DNA of 36,030 nucleotides from Candidatus Stahliibacteriota bacterium. GTDB taxonomy: Bacteria; Hydrothermota; Tepidihabitantia; B3-TA06. The notes below the pieces were generated by a model, which saw only the letters and a list, made by a program, of their open reading frames with translations, had not been told where the DNA came from and did not search any database. Of this stretch, positions 16,067 to 34,086 are shown piece by piece (position 1 is the stretch's first letter; each line of letters begins with the position of its first letter). The translations under genes and the position numbers were made by a program. The DNA lies in contig DAOVCF010000001.1 in NCBI GenBank assembly GCA_030670165.1, forward strand, positions 1 through 36,030, given 5' to 3'.

Positions 16067-16558
16067 ATGGCAAACGCCAGGGCGCGGTTGCGAACGAAGA
16101 GGATTTTCAACCTTATGATCATAGGCGCCGACCGCAGGACGCGCAACGCGTTCATTCAGTCACTCCTGGGCGAAAATAATATGGAGGAAGAAAATGGGCT
16201 CCCGCTGTTGAACTTCGGCAAGGTTAAGTCTGGATCTTACAGTGTCAACTTGTATGGGATTCCGTCGGACCCTCGCTTTGCTAAGATATGGCAGGCATTT
16301 GCCCCCAAGGTAGAAGGGATGATCCTTCTGGGCGGCGCCGGTTCCGAAAAAGATATAAGTAACCTGAACTACGCGCTTTCCCTCCTGCGCGAGGATGTAA
16401 AGGGCCCGGCAATACTGGTCAACACCGACCCTGTCCATTACGAAATCCCACTTGAAGAGAATATGCCGGACGTGAAGACGTTTACCTGTTTTCCTTCCGA
16501 CCGCATCAGGGCAGCGGGGATACTGAAGGATCTTCTTGCCGAACTTAACTGCCGTTAG
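16067..16558 (+). CDS. Small Ras-like/COG2229-type GTPase homolog with degenerate nucleotide-binding motifs (pseudo-GTPase candidate)
   Basis: ATG at 16067 is preceded by GGAGGAGG. The layout matches CvnD/MglA-like proteins ('LNFGKV..VNLYGIPSDPRFAKIW..VEGMILL..ILVNTD'). The P-loop position reads 'GADRRTRN' instead of GxxxxGK[ST]. Confidence 0.6.
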   Translation: MANARARLRTKRIFNLMIIGADRRTRNAFIQSLLGENNMEEENGLPLLNFGKVKSGSYSVNLYGIPSDPRFAKIWQAFAPKVEGMILLGGAGSEKDISNLNYALSLLREDVKGPAILVNTDPVHYEIPLEENMPDVKTFTCFPSDRIRAAGILKDLLAELNCR

Positions 16559-16592
16559 CCATCGATATCAAGACACCAATCAGATCGAGGAT

Positions 16593-16758
16593 TCTCCCGT
16601 GGTTGGAGTAGGTTTCCTTTCCCTCGGCAATCGAAATTGCCCACTCCCCTCAGTTCCCTCCAACCAGGTGAGAGGAATTAGTTAAGCGGCGTTGCACAGC
16701 AACGACGTAGGGTGGTAATCCCCCTTTAGTTCCCACTTAGTAAGAGGAATTCAGTGGG
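16593..16758. other. Structured, repeat-containing intergenic element (unassigned)
   Basis: Long-range helix 16593-16608/16658-16673 (14 of 16 pairs) encloses a perfect hairpin GGCAATcgaaATTGCC (16626-16641). Further hairpins are CGTTGCacaGCAACG (16690-16704) and CCCACT..AGTGGG (16732-16758). Direct repeats occur at 16646-16682 and 16720-16755. Confidence 0.3.
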
Positions 16759-16865
16759 ATCAAAGAAATCAAGAAATAGCAGCTTAGGCCTTAATATCCT
16801 CAATCCTAAAAGCCTGACTGTTCCACCATGTAGGTGTACTCGATCAACGAGCAAGTCCCTCTCGC

Positions 16866-16893
16866 TTGACAAACCTACCTGGAGTGGTATATT
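16866..16893 (+). promoter_or_regulatory. sigma70-type promoter of the small lipoprotein gene
   Basis: TTGACA 16866-16871, 16 nt spacer, TATATT 16888-16893. Confidence 0.45.
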
Positions 16894-16915
16894 GTTTCAA
16901 ATACTGGAGGGAGAC

Positions 16916-17257
16916 ATGAAAAGGTTCCTGCGGCTCTGTGCCGCGATCGTAGTGGTTTTCATCGCAGCAGGTTGCATGACAACCACGAAAACCCAACAGC
17001 CAGACCAGAATGACGTTCAAACGGGCTATCCTGGCAAGTGGGAACAGGCCACCCTTACAGAGGACGAGTTCGGATTCAAACTTATCGTCGTCCGGCAAAA
17101 CGACGAAAAGTGGGTTCTTGAATCAAAAACCACATGCTTCTGGACAAGGCAGCTGGTAGGCAGGACGGTATGGCTCAGATGGGGACCTGTGGAGTCGTTC
17201 CTTATGAACGATCAAGGTCAGATCTGCGAGTTCTGGACTGGGGAACGTATGGAGTAA
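16916..17257 (+). CDS. Small lipoprotein, function unknown
   Basis: ATG at 16916 follows GGAGGGAG. Signal/lipobox 'AAIVVVFIAAGC'. The longer track ORF (from 16754) would span the promoter. Confidence 0.6.
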   Translation: MKRFLRLCAAIVVVFIAAGCMTTTKTQQPDQNDVQTGYPGKWEQATLTEDEFGFKLIVVRQNDEKWVLESKTTCFWTRQLVGRTVWLRWGPVESFLMNDQGQICEFWTGERME

Positions 17258-17278
17258 GAAGACCCTCGTGTTTTGGCG

Positions 17279-17306
17279 TTGACAAGCCGAAGCAGCTCTA
17301 TATACT
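17279..17306 (+). promoter_or_regulatory. sigma70-type promoter upstream of the ACT-domain gene
   Basis: TTGACA 17279-17284, 16 nt spacer, TATACT 17301-17306. Confidence 0.45.
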
Positions 17307-17321
17307 TGCATGGAGGAAGAT

Positions 17322-17792
17322 ATGACCGGACCGGTTGAGTTGATTGAAACCAAACGCCGCGTGGCAATGGTTATTGTCAAATCCGTCCCGGACAAACCCG
17401 GTATCGCGGGCGAACTCTTCTCGCAACTGGGTAAAGCAGGCTTCAACATAGAGATGATATCCGAAAGCAGTGTATCAGGTGGATCGGCTGAGGTTTCTTT
17501 CGCATTAAACGAATCGCAGGTAAAAGAGGCGGTGGCGCACCTCGAGAGCCTTGATGTTCTAAAGAGAAGCGAGTTCGTGATAGAAAAAGGAAGGGGTATC
17601 TTGACGGTTTACGGAAAGAATCTTGCGCACGAGCCGGGGATCGCTGGCAAGATATTCTCTATACTGGCCCAGGAAGCCATAAACATCGATATGATCAGCA
17701 CCTCATTTACCGCTATAAGCGTGCTCATAAAGGATTCTTACCTCACACCGGCCAGGAACCTTCTAAGCCGGGAGCTTGGATTGGATGCTTGA
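17322..17792 (+). CDS. Stand-alone tandem ACT-domain protein (aspartokinase regulatory-domain-like)
   Basis: Two ACT units: 'VAMVIVKSVPDKPGIAGELFSQLGKAGFNIEMIS' and 'ILTVYGKNLAHEPGIAGKIFSILAQEAINIDMIS'. GGAGGAAG precedes the ATG at 17322. The ATG at 17310 is an alternative start but lies 3 nt from the -10 box. Confidence 0.75.
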   Translation: MTGPVELIETKRRVAMVIVKSVPDKPGIAGELFSQLGKAGFNIEMISESSVSGGSAEVSFALNESQVKEAVAHLESLDVLKRSEFVIEKGRGILTVYGKNLAHEPGIAGKIFSILAQEAINIDMISTSFTAISVLIKDSYLTPARNLLSRELGLDA

Positions 17793-18768
17793 AGGCAAGA
17801 TAGAGCGACAAGGATTCCTGGATATAATCCAGCTTTTGACCATGAGCCGCAAAACAGGTCGGCTAGAGATCACGGGAGCCGCCGAAGGCTCGCTTTTCTT
17901 TTCTAAAGGGGAGTTGCTCGACTGCCGGATGGGCAAGCTAACAGGAGACGAAGCGTTTATAGAACTCTTCATCCTCGTCGCCGGCAACTTCGAGTTCCAC
18001 GAGGAAAAGATCCCGGTTGAGCAACGCATCAACAAGTCCTTAACCGACCTTCTCATGGCGGCCTCGAAGCAGGCGACACAGTGGGATGCCGCATGCAAAG
18101 AGCTGCCCTTCGAGGATGCGGCGCTGGTTCTTGCACCGGTGGACCCTAACTCCGAGAAGGAATTCAACTTCAATGCCCTGGAATGGGCCATAGCCTCCCA
18201 TATCAATGGACGCCGCTCATTTGCCGAGATCGCACGTCTGCTTGCACAATCCAAGACCAAGGTAGCCATAACCATAGCTGCACTGAAAAGCCAGGGGCTT
18301 ATCACAACCGAAGACGAAGGCTCTGCAATACTACGGACCGTCTTTCGTAAAACCGCTGAAGTGCTCTATCACCTGATAGATACTCGCCTCAAGTCTCGTG
18401 TAAAGGATCGCGTCTTGATCGAGTTCAACAAGTGGACGTTCTCCAAGGGATTTGATATACGACTGCTTGACGGCGCCGGGGTAATCAACAACATCCCTTA
18501 CGACATGCCGCTTGACGACAAGATTATAGCCTATAGGCAAGCGTTGGAACAGCTGTACGAAGCGGTCCAGGCCGGACTCAACCGTAATGAGCTGCAGGAT
18601 CATATGGCTGAACTCTACGAATACCTCAACGAAAACGAACGCAAGTGTGTGTCCGATTATGAGCTTAATAAGTTTATCCCAACCCGGGGAAAAAGAAGAA
18701 AGGAGGAGGCTAATTTTTGGGAAACCCCACCCGACTCCATGGGTCCAGATGGGATCATCACGAGATAA
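17785..18768 (+). CDS. PATAN/DUF4388-domain protein with a possible winged-helix segment
   Basis: N-terminal 'GFLDIIQLLTMSRKTGRLEI..GSLFFSKGELLDC..GDEAFIELF..GNFEF' matches the DUF4388 signature. The mid region 'INGRRSFAEIARLLAQSKTKVAITIAALKSQGLI' looks like a wHTH. The ATG at 17785 overlaps the ACT gene stop; the track start is TTG at 17776. Confidence 0.65.
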   Translation: MLEGKIERQGFLDIIQLLTMSRKTGRLEITGAAEGSLFFSKGELLDCRMGKLTGDEAFIELFILVAGNFEFHEEKIPVEQRINKSLTDLLMAASKQATQWDAACKELPFEDAALVLAPVDPNSEKEFNFNALEWAIASHINGRRSFAEIARLLAQSKTKVAITIAALKSQGLITTEDEGSAILRTVFRKTAEVLYHLIDTRLKSRVKDRVLIEFNKWTFSKGFDIRLLDGAGVINNIPYDMPLDDKIIAYRQALEQLYEAVQAGLNRNELQDHMAELYEYLNENERKCVSDYELNKFIPTRGKRRKEEANFWETPPDSMGPDGIITR

Positions 18769-18927
18769 TAACTAGAATTTAACCCCGGGCATAGATCGTA
18801 GATCTTAAAAATCAATCGCTTAGAAGCGTAGATCAGGAATTGAATCCATCCCCCATATGACTCCCCGCATGATGCACGCAACCCGCCAGTGCTGCATCGC
18901 AAGGCTGCACAAAACGCAGGCAGACCT

Positions 18928-19302
18928 CTACGCCTCAGGCAGCGCCGCTTTCAGCTTTTCCGCGTAGATCTTGCTTACGTAACGGGCAGCGCCAAGGTTC
19001 GAACCGCGAGGCACGCCTATCGCCAAAAACGCCTTGCCCTCATCATCAAGCTGTTTGGTGAGAAAGTGAGCATCCACCGTGGATAGAAGGTTGTCCACCA
19101 GCCTCCCTTTCTTTACCTCGTCAACGATCCTTGAGATACTGCGCATGACATCGGTTAGCACCGCGCTCGTGAGCTCAACGTTCTCGCCGCCCTCTCGGGT
19201 CTTGCAGGCAAGCACCAACCCATCATCGCCGACAACGCATATCGAAAACGCCTCCCCGAGCCACTCGGCTATCTCCTCAAGATACTTCTGCAACTCACGC
19301 AT
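18928..19302 (-). CDS. Roadblock/LC7 (MglB-like) domain protein
   Basis: 124 aa. 'AFSICVVGDDGLVLA..ELTSAVLTDVMRS..KAFLAIGVPRGSNLGAARY' fits the Roadblock/LC7 pattern. AAGGAGG RBS. Confidence 0.75.
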   Translation of the reverse strand: MRELQKYLEEIAEWLGEAFSICVVGDDGLVLACKTREGGENVELTSAVLTDVMRSISRIVDEVKKGRLVDNLLSTVDAHFLTKQLDDEGKAFLAIGVPRGSNLGAARYVSKIYAEKLKAALPEA

Positions 19303-19332: not shown

Positions 19333-19360
19333 ATCCTAATGATGGATTTGGCAATGTCAA
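19333..19360 (-). promoter_or_regulatory. sigma70-type promoter of the Roadblock gene
   Basis: On the minus strand: TTGACA (19360-19355), 16 nt spacer, TAGGAT (19338-19333). Confidence 0.45.
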
Positions 19361-24622: not shown

Positions 24623-25084
24623 ATGTCGTACTGGGAGTTTCTAAAGGAAAGCGAGGTCTTCAACCTGCTTGAGAAAGCGGAATGCAAGGCCATAGCCGAG
24701 TTGGCCGAGGAACGCAAGGTCAGTCGGGGCTCAATCATCGGCAAAGAGGGAGACAAAGGTGAGGAGTTCTATCTTGTTGTCGAGGGGCAACTTGAGATCA
24801 GTATCAACGCTGCGCTTGCCGAGTCGATCCCTGTAACGATTGCCACCGTGGGGCAGGGGCAGATCTCAGGATGGTCCTCGATGTATAAGGACGGCAAGCT
24901 GACCGCCACAATCAAGGCGGCCAAGAACTCCAAGGTACTGGTATGGAACGCACAAAAGCTGCACGAGTTTCTGCTGCGCAACTGCGGGATGGGCTACCGC
25001 ATCCTGCAGCAGCTCTTGGCCGTGGTTGCCCGCCGCCTGGTCAACACCCGCGTTGCGCTCATGGGTTGCGTAATGGAGCGTTAA
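24623..25084 (+). CDS. Stand-alone cyclic-nucleotide-binding (CAP effector-type) domain protein
   Basis: 'GSIIGKEGDKGEEFYLVVEGQLEISI' and 'GQISGWSS..ATIKAAKNSKVLVW', followed by a C-helix. No HTH or other output domain. Confidence 0.7.
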   Translation: MSYWEFLKESEVFNLLEKAECKAIAELAEERKVSRGSIIGKEGDKGEEFYLVVEGQLEISINAALAESIPVTIATVGQGQISGWSSMYKDGKLTATIKAAKNSKVLVWNAQKLHEFLLRNCGMGYRILQQLLAVVARRLVNTRVALMGCVMER

Positions 25085-27551: not shown

Positions 27552-28391
27552 ATGATGGCCATGTCGCTAGGATTGTTCCTTTTGATCATCTTGCTCGCCT
27601 TTGCATGCGAGTTTATCGATGCTTCTGTGGGGATGGGCTACGGAACGATCCTTTCTCCTTTGCTTATAGGAATGGGATTTGATCCTTTGTTCGTTATCCC
27701 TGCACTTCTTCTATCCCAGGCAGTGGGAGGACTTACGGCTTCCCTTTCCCACGCCAGGCTGCGCAACGTCAGCTTCAGTCCACGCTCGAAGGATCTTAAG
27801 ATCTTCCTGATAATCACCGGAGCAGGCATCCTGGTCACCATATTTGCCGCTATCGTAGCCTTAAAGATTCCCAAAGTGGTGCTTTCTACCTATATCGGTG
27901 CACTCGTCCTGGCTATGGGAATCATCATACTCATCAACCTGCGGTTCAGCTTCTCCATTAAGAAAATGGTTGGGGTCGGTATCATAAGCGCCTTTAATAA
28001 GGGGCTGTCAGGCGGCGGTTTCGGGCCGATCGTTACCTCCGGTCAGATCATCTCCGGGCACAAGGCTAAACGTGCCGTGGGTGTAACCACACTCTCCGAG
28101 GCCCCTATCTGCATCACCGGTTTCTTGACATTCCTTATAGGCAAACTGATAATACAGAGTGAAGGATCTTTGCTTTCCCGGCCCGTAGGCGAGATCGCAC
28201 GCACCGTCTTCTTATCCCAGTCCATCCTGCGTTGGGACCTTATGATCGCACTCCTGATAGGTGTCGCCCTTGTCGCTCCCATCGCTCCCCTCTTGACCAA
28301 AAAGATCCACCGCAAACTCTGGAACTACATACTAGGCCCTCTGATTATCCTGCTCGGAGCGTGGGTGCTTATAAAGACCCACCTCCTCTAG
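27552..28391 (+). CDS. TSUP/TauE-SafE family anion (sulfite-type) permease, full length
   Basis: About 8 predicted TM segments. 'ACEFIDASVGMGYGTILSPLLI' fits the TauE/DUF81 N-terminal motif. The start is somewhat uncertain (ATG 27552, 27555 or 27561). Confidence 0.7.
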   Translation: MMAMSLGLFLLIILLAFACEFIDASVGMGYGTILSPLLIGMGFDPLFVIPALLLSQAVGGLTASLSHARLRNVSFSPRSKDLKIFLIITGAGILVTIFAAIVALKIPKVVLSTYIGALVLAMGIIILINLRFSFSIKKMVGVGIISAFNKGLSGGGFGPIVTSGQIISGHKAKRAVGVTTLSEAPICITGFLTFLIGKLIIQSEGSLLSRPVGEIARTVFLSQSILRWDLMIALLIGVALVAPIAPLLTKKIHRKLWNYILGPLIILLGAWVLIKTHLL

Positions 28392-28719
28392 CAGGGTTGC
28401 TAAGCGCCCCAAGATAAACCGCCAAAGGAAGAAGATTGATCTTCGGACCGTCAAGAACTCTCCACTCATTATCTTAACTTCGCGTTGTGTCCCATATGAG
28501 ATTGCTCCCTGCGTTCGCCCTCCGGAGCTCCGTCGCTTCGTTCATCGCAACAACTCACACAACATGCGGTGCGAGTCTTTAGACTCGCTGGTTAACTTTT
28601 TCCTGCGAAGATTGCTTAAAAAACATACGACCTCTTCGTCTAGGAGGGTTGCCAAGCTCTTCGGATCGGATATAGTTGTAATAGAAAACTCTGGTAACCT
28701 CATCAAACCTGGGAGTATC

Positions 28720-29097
28720 ATGAACGTTTGGCAATATCTTTTCGTGGCCGTAGTGGGGGTTGCTTCAGGAATGCTTTCCGGCCTTTTCGGTATAGGGGGC
28801 GGGACGCTGATCATACCGGCTCTGGTTTTCATTCTCGGCTTCACCCAGCACAATGCCCAGGGAACCTCGCTTGTCGCCCTGCTCTTGCCTGTGGGAATCC
28901 TTGGGGTGCTCCGTTACTGGAAAGCAGGTGACGTGAACTGGATAGCCGGCCTGATCATGGCAGGTGGGCTTCTCGTTGGGGCCTACTTCGGCGCAGGCTG
29001 GGCAGGAAAACTGAATGAGGTCTGGCTGAAGCGTGCGTTCGGTATCTTCTTTATCCTTTTGGGAATCAGGTACATACTTACCAGGTCAGCGCCTTAA
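28720..29097 (+). CDS. Half-size (about 4 TM) TSUP/TauE-family membrane protein
   Basis: ATG at 28720 follows GGGAG. 'VASGMLSGLFGIGGGTLIIPALVF..AQGTSL' is the classic TSUP motif, but the protein is only about 125 aa. The longer track ORF (from 28564) adds a non-hydrophobic, RBS-less extension. Confidence 0.7.
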   Translation: MNVWQYLFVAVVGVASGMLSGLFGIGGGTLIIPALVFILGFTQHNAQGTSLVALLLPVGILGVLRYWKAGDVNWIAGLIMAGGLLVGAYFGAGWAGKLNEVWLKRAFGIFFILLGIRYILTRSAP

Positions 29098-31490: not shown

Positions 31491-32585
31491 CTACCCTTTC
31501 TTTCCAGGCTTGCGAGAGTACCTACGAATATAGGCCTCGGTCTTGTGGCGGGCCACGTAGTCCGGGTACTGGATAGGCGGCGACTTGAAGAAGTAGCTTG
31601 ACGGAGCGGTAATAGCACCCTTTAGGCCGTGATTTAAAGCCAGCTTGGCGCACCGGATCGCATCTATCATCACCCCGGCAGAGTTGGGTGAGTCCCAAAC
31701 CTCCAGCTTGAGTTCGAGATTTAAGGGCACGTCACCAAAGGTCTGGCCTTCCATGCGTATGTGACACCACTTTCTGTCTTTGAGCCAGGGCACGTAATCC
31801 GATGGCCCCACGTGAACGTTCTCAGCCCCAATGTCGTAAGGCAGCATTGAGGTCACGGCACGGGTCTTTGAGATCTTTTTGGACTCAAGGCGTTCACGTT
31901 CGAGCATATTGAGAAAATCGGTGTTGCCGCCCACGTTGAGCTGGCTGGTACGTAAAAGTTTTACCCCTCGCTCGTGAAACAGGGTGGTAAGGACACGGTG
32001 AACGATTGTGGCACCCACCTGTGACTTGACATCGTCGCCAAGGACTGGCAGACCCTTTGAGCGGAACCTTCTGGGCCAATAGCCGCCCGAGGCGATAAAA
32101 ACAGGAATCCCGTTCACGAATGCACAGCCTGCATCAAGCGCCTGCTCAACGTACCACTTGGTTGCCTCCTCTGATCCTACGGGAAGGAAGTTGACTACCA
32201 CATCGGTCCTGGTCTCTTTTAAGAGTCGGGGGATGTCCACAGTGTTGCCAGGCGCCTTGGTGATAATCTGTGAAAGATACTTCCCCAGACCATCGTGGAC
32301 CATACCTCTCACTACCCTGACACCCGACTTGGGAACCTTGCAAAACACCTGGGTATTGTTCGGATAGGTATATATCGCCTGCGATAAATCCTTGCCGACC
32401 TTGCGCTTGTCTATGTCTATAGCAAGTGAAAATTCAATGTCCGAAACATGGTAGCCCCCCAGGTTCACGTGCATGAGGCCCGGGATTATCTCACCTTCCT
32501 TCGCGTTGCGGTAGTAATGAACCCCCTGCACCAGTGAACTCGCACAGTTGCCCACCCCGATGATCGCAACCCGAATCTTACTCAT
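31491..32585 (-). CDS. ino1: myo-Inositol-1-phosphate synthase (inositol-3-phosphate synthase, prokaryotic type)
   Basis: '[25 protein letters not shown]' Rossmann start and '[19 protein letters not shown]'. About 364 aa. ATG at 32585 follows AAAGGAG. The track's TTG at 32600 is inside the RBS region. Confidence 0.85.
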
Positions 32586-32618
32586 TGCCACTCCTTTCAA
32601 TTATGACTAGAGAATGTA

Positions 32619-32646
32619 AGTTTATAAATTAGCGCGCCTATGTCAA
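32619..32646 (-). promoter_or_regulatory. Candidate promoter of the inositol-phosphate synthase gene
   Basis: On the minus strand: TTGACA (32646-32641), 16 nt spacer, TAAACT (32624-32619). Confidence 0.4.
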
Positions 32647-32703
32647 GGCCAGCTGGAGTACTCCAGAGAGAACACCAGCAATCAGTTATCCAAGCCTGAA
32701 GCA

Positions 32704-34086
32704 TCACCTTCTCCTGCCACGAACGAGAATCCAAAACACCGCCAGATGTGAGATTAACCCTACACCCAGCATCGCAAAGAAGGGCTGACCAACAACGGCC
32801 CCGAGGAAGATGACAAAGAGTCGGAGGTCCCTCTTGGCAAGCCTTGGCAGAAACCGGCTAGGGGATGGTTTCTGAAACCGAAGCTGGTACTCCTTCTTAG
32901 AATAGCTTGCCAATAGGAAGCCGGATAGTGCGCCGATCCCGGCCAACCATACCCAGAACTCGGGATGAGTAAGCCAGAATCCATAGGTGACGCCTGCTGC
33001 AATGGAAAGATCGGCATACCGGTCGAGGATCGTATCAAAAAAAGCCCCGAAGCGGCTACCGAGAGCTTTAAGTCGAGCGATCTCACCGTCGCAGCCGTCG
33101 ATTATCGAGGAGACCTGAATCAAGACCCCGGCAAATAGCACCGGAAGATAACCTTGGCGCGTAAAGAGCCAGGCTCCCAGGAGGGCGATAGCGAAGGAGA
33201 CGACGGTAATGGTGTTTGGGGTAACCGGGGTGTGAGCGAGTAACCGCGAGAGGCGGATTGAAAGAGGGCGGTTGAGATAGCGGGCGATGAAGCCGTCCTC
33301 ACTTGGTTTGTCAACTTGCTCCGCAAGGCGACGTTTCGCCTCCCTTAAACTCCGGGGGGTATCAACGTCGAGCCAAAAGCGCTTGCCGATATCATACGTC
33401 CTCATGCGCCCCTCGGCGGCCAGCTCGGCGATCCCGTCGGAGAGTTCATACCTGCCCTTGGCTTGGACCCTGGCCAGCGGCGCAAAGATCGCAGGGGTAA
33501 GAAGAAAGATACCCGTATCTATCCCGTCGTATCTTGTTAAGTCCTTTCCTATAGCCCTGATGCGGCCCGATTGAGTGGAAACCTTGGTCGCACCTCGAAG
33601 ATCGAAGACCCGCTCGGTCCGCCTGTCTATCGCCAGAAAGCAGGAATCGTCCTCGGACCCCACACGCAAGAGTCCTGCAAGCAGCCCCGGCTCAAACAGA
33701 TGGTCGCCCATCACGAGCACAAACGGCTCGGTGAGTTTGCCGCGACAGGCAAGCAGTGAGGTTCCGTTTCCCTTTTCCCAGTCCGGGTTTTCGACCACCT
33801 CAATCCGAACCGATCTCTTTCTCGCCAGCCGCGTCAGAAAGGACCGCATCGGCTTGGGTTTGTAGCCGGTTACCACGATGAAGTCGGAGAGTCCTGCCAC
33901 CTTGCATGACAGGACTACGCGTTCCAGTAGCGGCAACCCGAGGACCCTGCGCATCGGTTTCAACTCATTCTTTCTCTCTCGTAGCCGACTTCCCCTACCG
34001 GCAGCGAGGATGACTACCTTCCTGACCGTAAGCCTTTGCCGGCTACCCCTGTTCTTGCCGCTTTCTATCACATCCGCAACCCACAT
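32704..34086 (-). CDS. Fused CTP:inositol-1-phosphate cytidylyltransferase / CDP-alcohol phosphatidyltransferase (IPCT/DIPPS-like)
   Basis: N-terminal nucleotidyltransferase 'VVILAAGRGSRL'. The C-terminal membrane domain has an intact CDP-alcohol motif 'DGCDGEIARLKALGSRFGAFFDTILD' (DxxDGxxAR-x8-G-x3-D-x3-D). Confidence 0.8.
   Translation of the reverse strand: MWVADVIESGKNRGSRQRLTVRKVVILAAGRGSRLRERKNELKPMRRVLGLPLLERVVLSCKVAGLSDFIVVTGYKPKPMRSFLTRLARKRSVRIEVVENPDWEKGNGTSLLACRGKLTEPFVLVMGDHLFEPGLLAGLLRVGSEDDSCFLAIDRRTERVFDLRGATKVSTQSGRIRAIGKDLTRYDGIDTGIFLLTPAIFAPLARVQAKGRYELSDGIAELAAEGRMRTYDIGKRFWLDVDTPRSLREAKRRLAEQVDKPSEDGFIARYLNRPLSIRLSRLLAHTPVTPNTITVVSFAIALLGAWLFTRQGYLPVLFAGVLIQVSSIIDGCDGEIARLKALGSRFGAFFDTILDRYADLSIAAGVTYGFWLTHPEFWVWLAGIGALSGFLLASYSKKEYQLRFQKPSPSRFLPRLAKRDLRLFVIFLGAVVGQPFFAMLGVGLISHLAVFWILVRGRRR

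Follow-up and report, generated by a model that had tools for sequence, protein, structure and literature searches.

A candidate ligand-responsive PATAN/Roadblock module with a Ras-fold neighbour in a narrow WOR-3/Stahlbacteria clade

The first 36,030 nt of contig DAOVCF010000001.1, assigned to a Candidatus Stahliibacteriota bacterium (assembly GCA_030670165.1), were analysed on the forward strand; this whole stretch is referred to below as the window. Five adjacent genes at 16067–19302 had been singled out from the letters alone (the sequence-only reading) as a candidate metabolite-gated switch of the small-GTPase type, consisting of a COG2229/MglA-like GTPase homologue, a small lipoprotein, a free-standing tandem-ACT protein, a PATAN protein and a convergently transcribed Roadblock/LC7 protein. 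All five genes proved to be real, and the domain classes proposed for the ACT, PATAN, Roadblock and Ras-like proteins were borne out by profiles and models. The features of the locus, with the evidence on which each was annotated, are as follows (loci are designated by L numbers and individual proteins by P numbers).

16067–16558, plus strand: free-standing Ras-fold protein of 163 aa, a putative pseudo-GTPase, preceded by a GGAGG ribosome-binding site (fold, motif and family comparisons).
16559–16787, no strand: intergenic spacer without conservation, running from the pseudo-GTPase gene to the conserved region before the lipoprotein gene (repeats; synteny breakpoint at its 3' end).
16788–16915, plus strand: near-invariant stretch of ~130 nt ahead of the lipoprotein gene (nucleotide comparison of the window with L118).
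16866–16893, plus strand: promoter-like TTGACA-16-TATATT before the lipoprotein gene (box search, alignment).
16916–17257, plus strand: small lipoprotein of 113 aa with the lipobox ...IAAGC (signal peptide).
17279–17306, plus strand: promoter-like TTGACA-16-TATACT directly before the ACT gene (boxes aligned across lineages).
17322–17792, plus strand: free-standing ACT-ACT protein of 156 aa (Pfam ACT_9; alignment to aspartokinase regulatory regions).
17785–18102, plus strand: PATAN (DUF4388/PatA_N) domain and long helix, residues 1–106 of a 327-aa protein (Pfam, model).
18157–18312, plus strand: winged-helix segment of the same protein, residues ~125–176 (weak-score relatives of the Lrp/AsnC and MarR types).
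18316–18768, plus strand: C-terminal domain of the same protein, helical and peculiar to the family, which includes a beta-hairpin (residues 178–291), and a disordered tail (303–327) (model).
18928–19302, minus strand: single-domain Roadblock/LC7 protein of 124 aa, convergent with the PATAN gene (orthologue profiles).
19333–19360, minus strand: promoter-like TTGACA-16-TAGGAT before the Roadblock gene (boxes aligned across lineages).

The ACT gene was taken to start at the ATG at 17322, which follows a GGAGGA site and was preferred over the ATG at 17310. Its product matches Pfam ACT_9 (3.4e-27) in two stretches and aligns to the regulatory regions of aspartokinases, including positions 257–409 of PRK07431; the PDB aspartokinase 3l76 was matched at 7.7e-32, and the aspartokinase beta subunits 2re1 and 2dtj were matched as well. 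Both beta1-alpha1 loops (PGIAG) are conserved among the orthologues. Loops of the PG-x-A-G type line the ligand site in ACT domains generally. Members of the ACT cluster carry the label 'aspartate kinase' at JGI. An identity as the aspartokinase enzyme was nevertheless rejected, the tandem ACT regulatory pair being present and the catalytic domain not: no amino-acid kinase catalytic domain was found in the 156-aa protein, whose scores against the NCBIfam aspartokinase models reach at most 98.6 bits (cut-offs 208–832), and no kinase gene adjoins the ACT gene. With the aspartokinase ACT pair and beta subunit (3l76, 2dtj, 2re1) the protein shares two ACT domains, equal length, the conserved PG-x-A loops and the MISTS motif; unlike those proteins, it is encoded by a gene of its own, whose coupling is to PATAN and not to a kinase domain.

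It could be argued on these grounds that the neighbouring genes have no common function: the ACT-ACT protein would be a separately encoded regulatory subunit of the aspartokinase beta type, PATAN and Roadblock would be an orphan pair of the ordinary kind, and the Ras-fold protein would be a decaying paralogue. Such an explanation, which we regard as quite improbable, draws on the best ACT matches, namely aspartokinase regulatory regions and beta subunits of equal size, and on the JGI label. In the known alpha2beta2 aspartokinases, however, a single gene yields both subunits, the beta subunit being made from an internal start, and the start/stop overlap and shared conserved promoter described below bind the ACT gene to the PATAN gene, not to a kinase gene.

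The ATG of the PATAN gene (17785) overlaps the ACT stop codon (17790–17792) by 8 nt (ATGCTTGA), which confirms the overlap already noticed in the sequence-only reading. The encoded protein matches DUF4388 (PF14332) over residues 6–103 (2.2e-16; 60.4 bits against a Pfam cut-off of 25 bits), and PF14332 is carried by 22/22 aligned relatives. In the structural model (predicted local distance difference test, pLDDT, 87.2) a PATAN domain of the element order beta-alpha-beta-beta-beta-alpha-beta and a long helix occupy residues 1–106; these are followed by a compact winged-helix unit of three helices and a strand (residues 131–175) and by a helical C-terminal domain with a beta-hairpin (178–291), ending in the disordered tail. 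No known relative of the C-terminal domain was found by sequence profile or Foldseek. Profile-profile comparisons of the PATAN family with the Ras-fold family and with the Roadblock protein revealed no relationship, and the former result means that the C-terminal domain of the PATAN protein is not a cryptic GTPase. A PADLOC scan of the components gave no defence-system match, with a weak match to the Csa3 helix-turn-helix (HTH) domain (0.0034) for the PATAN protein only.

Foldseek searches with the model of the PATAN protein returned nothing from the PDB at E≤1e-3. The best, non-significant matches (E 0.06–0.3) were to Nprl2/Nprl3-type chains of GATOR1/SEACIT, mostly in a local match of 68 residues. 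Nprl2 and Nprl3 subunits combine longin and winged-helix domains, and the element order of PATAN is also longin-like. These matches were rejected as evidence and are kept as a lead only.

MarR-, AsnC- and ArsR-type winged HTH domains were matched at residues ~133–185 of the PATAN protein (E 0.007–0.07, below curated cut-offs), and the best PDB profile matches of the PATAN family were to winged HTH proteins of the Lrp/AsnC type (E 0.017–0.03, not significant). Taken at face value, these matches would turn the locus into a split amino-acid-responsive transcription factor, in which the PATAN-winged-helix protein binds DNA and the separate ACT-ACT protein stands in for the RAM/ACT effector domain of Lrp/AsnC regulators, with the Roadblock protein and the pseudo-GTPase peripheral or unrelated. 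Winged HTH domains (MarR, AsnC, ArsR and the Lrp/AsnC PDB chains) are the only sequence relatives of residues ~125–185, the unit at 131–175 is compact in the model, the ACT and PATAN genes are coupled, and one PATAN orthologue is named 'DNA-binding Lrp family transcriptional regulator' by JGI. We still consider a regulator of this kind unlikely. Every HTH score lies under the curated cut-offs; no operator-like repeat is shared among the lipoprotein, ACT and Roadblock promoters, which have the promoter boxes alone in common; and both the strict conservation of the Roadblock gene and the PATAN-pseudo-GTPase fusions described below would be left unexplained. In addition, experiments on cyanobacterial PATAN response regulators of the PatA type favour action on protein partners such as the pilus motor PilB1 over action on DNA (bioRxiv 10.1101/2021.06.11.447907).

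The promoter-like sequence before the ACT gene reads GTTGACA-N16/17-TATACT, and both its -35 and -10 boxes are conserved in 8/8 aligned lineages. Upstream of the Roadblock gene stands CTTGACAT-N17-TTAGGAT or TTATGAT, with an exact -35 box in 7/8 aligned lineages; in L009 this box is degenerate and the upstream sequence runs into N. Judging by the promoter-like boxes, the predicted transcription units are the pseudo-GTPase gene, the lipoprotein gene, the ACT-PATAN pair and the Roadblock gene. The lipoprotein gene precedes the ACT gene in all lineages except L009/L123, and the role of its product in the module is uncertain. Between the window and L118, the ~130 nt before the lipoprotein ATG hardly differ, and the coding sequence is less conserved (87% amino-acid identity). 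The conservation of 16788–16915 suggests a regulatory element beyond the promoter. The spacer further upstream (16559–16787) contains a 16-nt inverted repeat (16593–16608 / 16658–16673) and a 21-nt direct repeat (16659 / 16731), and, ending as it does at a synteny breakpoint, may be a rearrangement scar. An Rfam scan over the window gave no match.

The assignment of the protein encoded at 18928–19302 to Roadblock/LC7, also made in the sequence-only reading, is supported by its orthologues. The window copy itself remains below the Pfam cut-off for Robl_LC7 (0.0028; 17.8 bits versus 23 bits), and 9/9 orthologues match this family (best 2.6e-5), three of them matching MAPKK1_Int as well. When the orthologue profile was compared with the PDB, CvnB5 (3leq) and MglC (7ct3) were the top matches, aligned end to end at E 0.026–0.044. 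One member of the cluster is named 'Roadblock/LC7/MglB family' by JGI. No other member of the module is as well conserved as the Roadblock protein, which reaches 72–100% identity across loci.

Roadblock proteins of this kind bring to mind a genuine polarity or motility switch. In that case a canonical GTPase of the MglA type, encoded at another place in the genome, would have the Roadblock protein as its MglB-like GTPase-activating protein or partner, its cycle would be linked through the PATAN protein to a machine (the type IV pilus motor, for example), and a metabolic input would come from the ACT protein. PATAN genes are known to occur beside homologues of mglA and mglB (PMC4316618, section 18; bioRxiv 10.1101/2021.06.11.447907); according to the account given by Wuichet and Sogaard-Andersen in 2014 (PMC4316618), this PATAN/Roadblock/MglA neighbourhood goes back to Makarova et al. 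2006. The full-length alignment of the Roadblock protein to MglC and CvnB agrees with such a switch, and the switch II sequence of the neighbouring Ras-fold family, LYG-[ILV]-PG, resembles LYTVPGQ of MglA. On the other hand, no cognate active GTPase is coupled to the Roadblock gene, the sole Ras-fold neighbour being motif-less and missing from the locus in most relatives, and the one Ras-fold partner visibly tied to PATAN in the clade is likewise motif-less. No canonical GTPase gene was found in the 36-kb window, nor in ~370 kb of DNA, mostly from the clade and including the fusion loci, searched by tblastn with an MglA query, a sample that is partly redundant, covers a small part of the genomes and is therefore uninformative. 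Moreover, 328 orphan MglB homologues that lack a coupled GTPase are on record, such orphans being uncharacterised (PMC4316618), so that a Roadblock gene alone implies no such partner. We consider such a switch, which amounts to the proposal of the sequence-only reading with its GTPase provided in trans, distinctly unlikely.

In order to define the conserved part of the locus, gene order was compared among all loci found with the PATAN protein in genome and metagenome scans. The ACT and PATAN genes are adjacent in every one of them, down to 59% PATAN identity, and are accompanied by the convergent Roadblock gene wherever the contig reaches that far (L001–L007, L009–L013 and L117–L124); the contig of L122 ends before the Roadblock position. 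Across the loci identity amounts to 59–98% for the PATAN protein, 54–99% for the ACT protein and 44–99% for the lipoprotein, and L001 is 98% identical to the window at the protein level. The 8-nt overlap of the ACT and PATAN genes is found in most lineages, with a spacer of 35–55 nt in its place in L006, L007 and L122. At least five different flanking contexts surround the ACT, PATAN and Roadblock genes: upstream there are genes for glutamate dehydrogenase, an Rrf2/CutA-like protein (both by sequence appearance), a secreted protein or an FGE-sulfatase, and downstream there are FG-GAP, esterase-like (by sequence appearance) or hexapeptide-transferase genes. Since the flanks vary while the three genes stay, the trio has been kept together through rearrangements, which speaks against a chance assembly of an aspartokinase-type subunit with an orphan pair. 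As far as gene order allows us to judge, the conserved unit is the ACT-PATAN bicistronic operon together with the Roadblock gene, usually accompanied by the lipoprotein gene.

The pseudo-GTPase gene adjoins this unit only in the window, L001, L002, L117 and L124, where PATAN identity is at least 92%, and is absent upstream in L118 (90% PATAN identity), L012, L005, L006 and L009. Nucleotide similarity between the window and L118 begins at ~16788, ~130 nt before the lipoprotein ATG, and is near-perfect from there onward; the sequence on the 5' side is unrelated. The absence of the gene at PATAN identities of 90% and below, together with the breakpoint at ~16788, means that the adjacency of the Ras-fold gene is recent and lies outside the conserved locus. 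Thus, the co-localisation expected from the sequence-only reading was found for the ACT, PATAN and Roadblock genes in every related locus (PATAN identity 59–98%), but not for the Ras-fold gene at PATAN identities of 90% or less. The mobility of this gene relative to the locus would also suit genes without a common function.

Pfam and NCBIfam scans of the 163-aa Ras-fold protein gave no match. The single sequence matched Arl8 in the PDB at 5e-4, and a profile built from ten family sequences matched Arl8 at 1.6e-7 and 93 other chains, nearly all of them of the Arf/Arl family. Its AlphaFold2 model (pLDDT 85.6; predicted template modelling score, pTM, 0.82) displays the Ras-like element order beta1-alpha1-beta2-beta3-alpha2-beta4-alpha3-beta5-beta6-alpha. 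A Foldseek search with this model produced 1273 PDB matches at E≤1e-3, and among the matches listed 50/50 were small GTPases with template modelling (TM) scores of 0.57–0.70. The Ras-like fold that had been proposed for 16067–16558 is therefore confirmed at the level of the predicted structure, with the model, Foldseek and the family profile in agreement. Membership in MglA/COG2229, proposed at the same time, is not established: the family profile prefers Arf/Arl proteins, and an MglA sequence aligns to the family over 57 columns only, spanning beta2 to beta4.

The nucleotide-binding motifs of small GTPases have been replaced throughout the family. In place of the canonical G1 motif GxxxxGK[ST], the family reads G20-x-[DN]-R23-x-x-R26-N27, the window copy having G20-A-D-R23-R-T-R26-N27 aligned to G-L-Q-Y-S-G-K-T of Arl8; the lysine has thus given way to an invariant arginine, Ser/Thr to a nearly invariant asparagine (N27), and the second glycine has been lost. 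The G3 motif, DxxGQ in general and TxxGQ in MglA, corresponds to G64-[ILV]-P-[GS]-[AD] (consensus G-x-P-G-A; G64-I-P-S-D in the window copy), with the Asp/Thr replaced by the invariant G64 and the catalytic Gln by Ala or Asp. At the position of G4 ([NT]KxD), placed by its location after beta5 in the model, the closer members have N-T-[DN]-P (N-T-D-P in the window copy) and the distant ones K-L-R-T or S-L-G-P. With P-loop Lys/Ser, Walker-B Asp, catalytic Gln and NKxD all lost, a GTPase-type switch is unlikely, and in this respect the earlier proposal is not supported; from its motifs the 163-aa protein would be a pseudo-GTPase for which a GTP cycle is unlikely. The replacement residues R23, R26, G64, F71, A72 and W75 are invariant in the ten-sequence alignment, which indicates selection on a new function rather than the decay that a functionless paralogue would show. 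Pseudo-GTPases are a recognised class, described 'from bacteria to human' (PMC12490416).

An exhaustive HMMER search of 1.84 billion representatives showed this to be a tiny family of about 10 clusters, with 11 proteins found at E≤1e-3. Word-indexed searches with the 163-aa protein recovered its own cluster only, and with the family alignment one unrelated true GTPase was the sole addition. Six of the relatives (P0032, P0034 and P0036–P0039) have the architecture REC-DUF4388(PATAN)-linker-pseudo-GTPase, with a linker that looks winged-helix-like by eye. A locus scan with a 5-sequence alignment revealed that such a fusion is encoded on another contig in 8/8 species-level genomes that carry the module of the window, among them JAGMDF01 (L096), a close relative of the window. 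The other seven are JAYELY01, SOJW01, JAUVJT01, CBFGKC01, JAFGSK01, WJJO01 and CAZUXE01. At L096 the fusion operon consists of genes for a hybrid histidine kinase, a single REC protein, the fusion and an EF-G paralogue; in a more distant hydrothermal-vent lineage the order is REC, GAF-histidine kinase, fusion and EF-G, with a stop/start overlap, and at P0038 it is REC, GAF/PAS-histidine kinase and fusion. No Roadblock or ACT gene was found near the fusion operons. The free-standing family member P0031 lies in an unrelated gene context, and its distance from the window copy is about that of the clade's fused domains (41–51%).

The Ras-fold and PATAN domains are thus encoded by separate genes in the window and united in one polypeptide in the fusion proteins. 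Because the REC-PATAN-pseudo-GTPase fusions occur in the same genomes, they provide Rosetta-stone evidence that the Ras-fold domain works with the PATAN-winged-helix unit. The link between the two domains is supported by this fusion, as read from sequence, and not by synteny. Of the metabolite-gated switch proposed earlier, then, the ACT-PATAN-Roadblock linkage is real and conserved; the Ras-fold gene is motif-less and only recently adjacent, though tied to PATAN through the fusion.

The EF-G paralogue starts 0–8 nt after the stop codon of the fusion gene at L094 (5066–10524), L096, L097, L098 and L100, and also at L112–L114. A motif-less Ras-fold domain is tightly coupled there to a paralogue of a translational GTPase.

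Our tentative preference, to which we give somewhat less than an even chance, is that the locus encodes a cytoplasmic, ligand-responsive PATAN/Roadblock adaptor or regulator complex with the ACT protein as its input, confined to a narrow WOR-3/Stahlbacteria clade. The ACT-ACT protein would dimerise and, by homology, bind an amino acid or a related small metabolite. Made from one transcript together with the PATAN protein, and coupled to it in translation in the majority of lineages, it could be the stoichiometric partner of that protein, and its state would alter the way in which the PATAN protein engages further partners. These would be a Roadblock dimer and, through the winged helix and the C-terminal domain, a downstream target, either DNA or a protein machine. 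The pseudo-GTPase may act as a nucleotide-independent Ras-fold adaptor for PATAN that forms part of the response-regulator paralogue and stands alone at this locus, the window copy presumably being a paralogue brought beside the module by the recent rearrangement.

Several points weigh against this proposal. Ligand binding by the ACT protein is predicted from homology, and the physical contacts among the components are likewise conjectural. The clade is narrow, with eight species genomes and PATAN identities of at least 59%, and part of the synteny could reflect inheritance and not selection; a Roadblock scan of genomes and a PATAN scan of metagenomes recovered nothing beyond these eight species and a few JGI contigs. 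An orthologue with the PATAN, winged-helix and C-terminal domains (39% identity) at L008 has neither an ACT nor a Roadblock neighbour. The Roadblock gene has its own promoter, and in L119–L121 a 1.8-kb insertion splits it from the PATAN gene. The pseudo-GTPase, for its part, might still bind a nucleotide or another anion via its conserved arginines.

The L008 gene (6001–8655; the same as L126), the only distant orthologue, lies between cysS and hpf-hprK-EIIA, with hpf (ribosome hibernation factor), hprK and the gene for EIIA-Man of the phosphotransferase system downstream on the same strand. The insert of L119 (3860–5621), also present in L120 and L121 and belonging to a 90%-identical lineage, comprises a radical-SAM/spore-photoproduct-lyase-like gene and a gene for a 298-aa protein without a Pfam match; together the two resemble a small cassette of the mobile or defence type.

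The locus shares with the documented PATAN-MglB/MglA neighbourhoods a DUF4388/PATAN domain followed by a putative winged-helix-like segment, an adjacent Roadblock gene and, in the window, a nearby Ras-fold gene; it differs in the translational coupling of an ACT-ACT protein to PATAN, in a Ras-fold protein without G1, G3 and G4, and in a PATAN protein that lacks a REC domain and carries a helical C-terminal domain peculiar to its family. The single-domain Roadblock protein, aligned full-length to MglC (7ct3), and the likeness of LYG-x-PG to LYTVPGQ are shared with MglA/MglB/MglC of Myxococcus xanthus. There is here, in contrast, no P-loop or catalytic Gln, linkage between the GTPase-like and Roadblock genes is not stable, RomR/RomX were not found and no motility context is visible. 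The gene set also recalls that of the actinobacterial conservons (CvnA-D; Mfp), in that it combines a sensor input with a Roadblock protein (CvnB5 being the top PDB profile match), a Ras-fold protein and a putative winged-helix protein. CvnD9 of those systems is an active GTPase (PMC4316618). Membership in the conservons (CvnABCD) was rejected: the locus contains no CvnA-type kinase and no DUF742 match, the Ras-fold protein has lost the GTPase motifs, the phylum is another one, and the genes form separate transcription units with their own promoters, one of them convergent.

The general association of PATAN with Roadblock genes is already known, and the coupling to an ACT protein is the new element. 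In the literature accessible to this analysis we found no report of an ACT-ACT gene coupled to a PATAN gene, of the R-x-x-R-N Ras-fold family, or of its REC-PATAN fusion beside an EF-G paralogue. A Ras-fold family in which all nucleotide motifs have been replaced by R-x-x-R-N would be a prokaryotic pseudo-GTPase. The covalent PATAN-Ras-fold fusion argues for a direct contact between PATAN and Ras-like domains, and the free-standing ACT sensor co-translated with the PATAN protein is a candidate small-molecule input. The four proteins are small and soluble, which opens them to in vitro work although their hosts have not been cultured. Interactions that hold up would reveal the wiring and gating of PATAN/Roadblock modules; should they fail, what is left is a lineage-specific gene cluster only.

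Since their definition in 2006, PATAN domains, which are present in thousands of proteins, have had no molecular mechanism assigned to them. A more far-reaching idea, which we deem highly improbable, is that of a nutrient-sensing device built on the logic of Rag-Ragulator-GATOR/CASTOR: a Roadblock dimer and a Ras-fold domain free of nucleotide would assemble with a PATAN-winged-helix scaffold controlled by the ACT sensor, PATAN would be a dedicated docking domain for Ras-fold proteins, and the paralogous operon would couple a phosphorelay to a translational GTPase. Were PATAN such a docking domain, it would gain a molecular function. The sequence-only reading had already pointed to Rag, Ragulator and CASTOR1. 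The likeness to Rag-Ragulator-GATOR1-CASTOR1 and to eukaryotic pseudo-GTPases is one of logic (Ras and Roadblock folds together with an ACT sensor of the aspartokinase type) and remains an analogy only: no homology beyond the shared folds was shown, and a heterodimeric Rag architecture is absent here.

The remaining genes of the window are housekeeping and envelope genes unrelated to the module. On the plus strand, at 24623–25084, there is a free-standing cyclic-nucleotide-binding-domain protein of 153 aa without an output domain, upstream of a class II tRNA synthetase gene of the Asp/Asn/Lys type. Two adjacent open reading frames of the TauE/SafE type are found at 27552–29097 (plus strand); of these, the second, with 177 aa, aligns to the C-terminal half of the profile alone and may be a truncated duplicate. 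At 31491–34086 (minus strand) a gene for myo-inositol-1-phosphate synthase adjoins one for a bifunctional NTP-transferase/CDP-alcohol phosphatidyltransferase. These are the genes expected for di-myo-inositol phosphate, a compatible solute of (hyper)thermophiles, which fits the hydrothermal or subsurface sources of related contigs.

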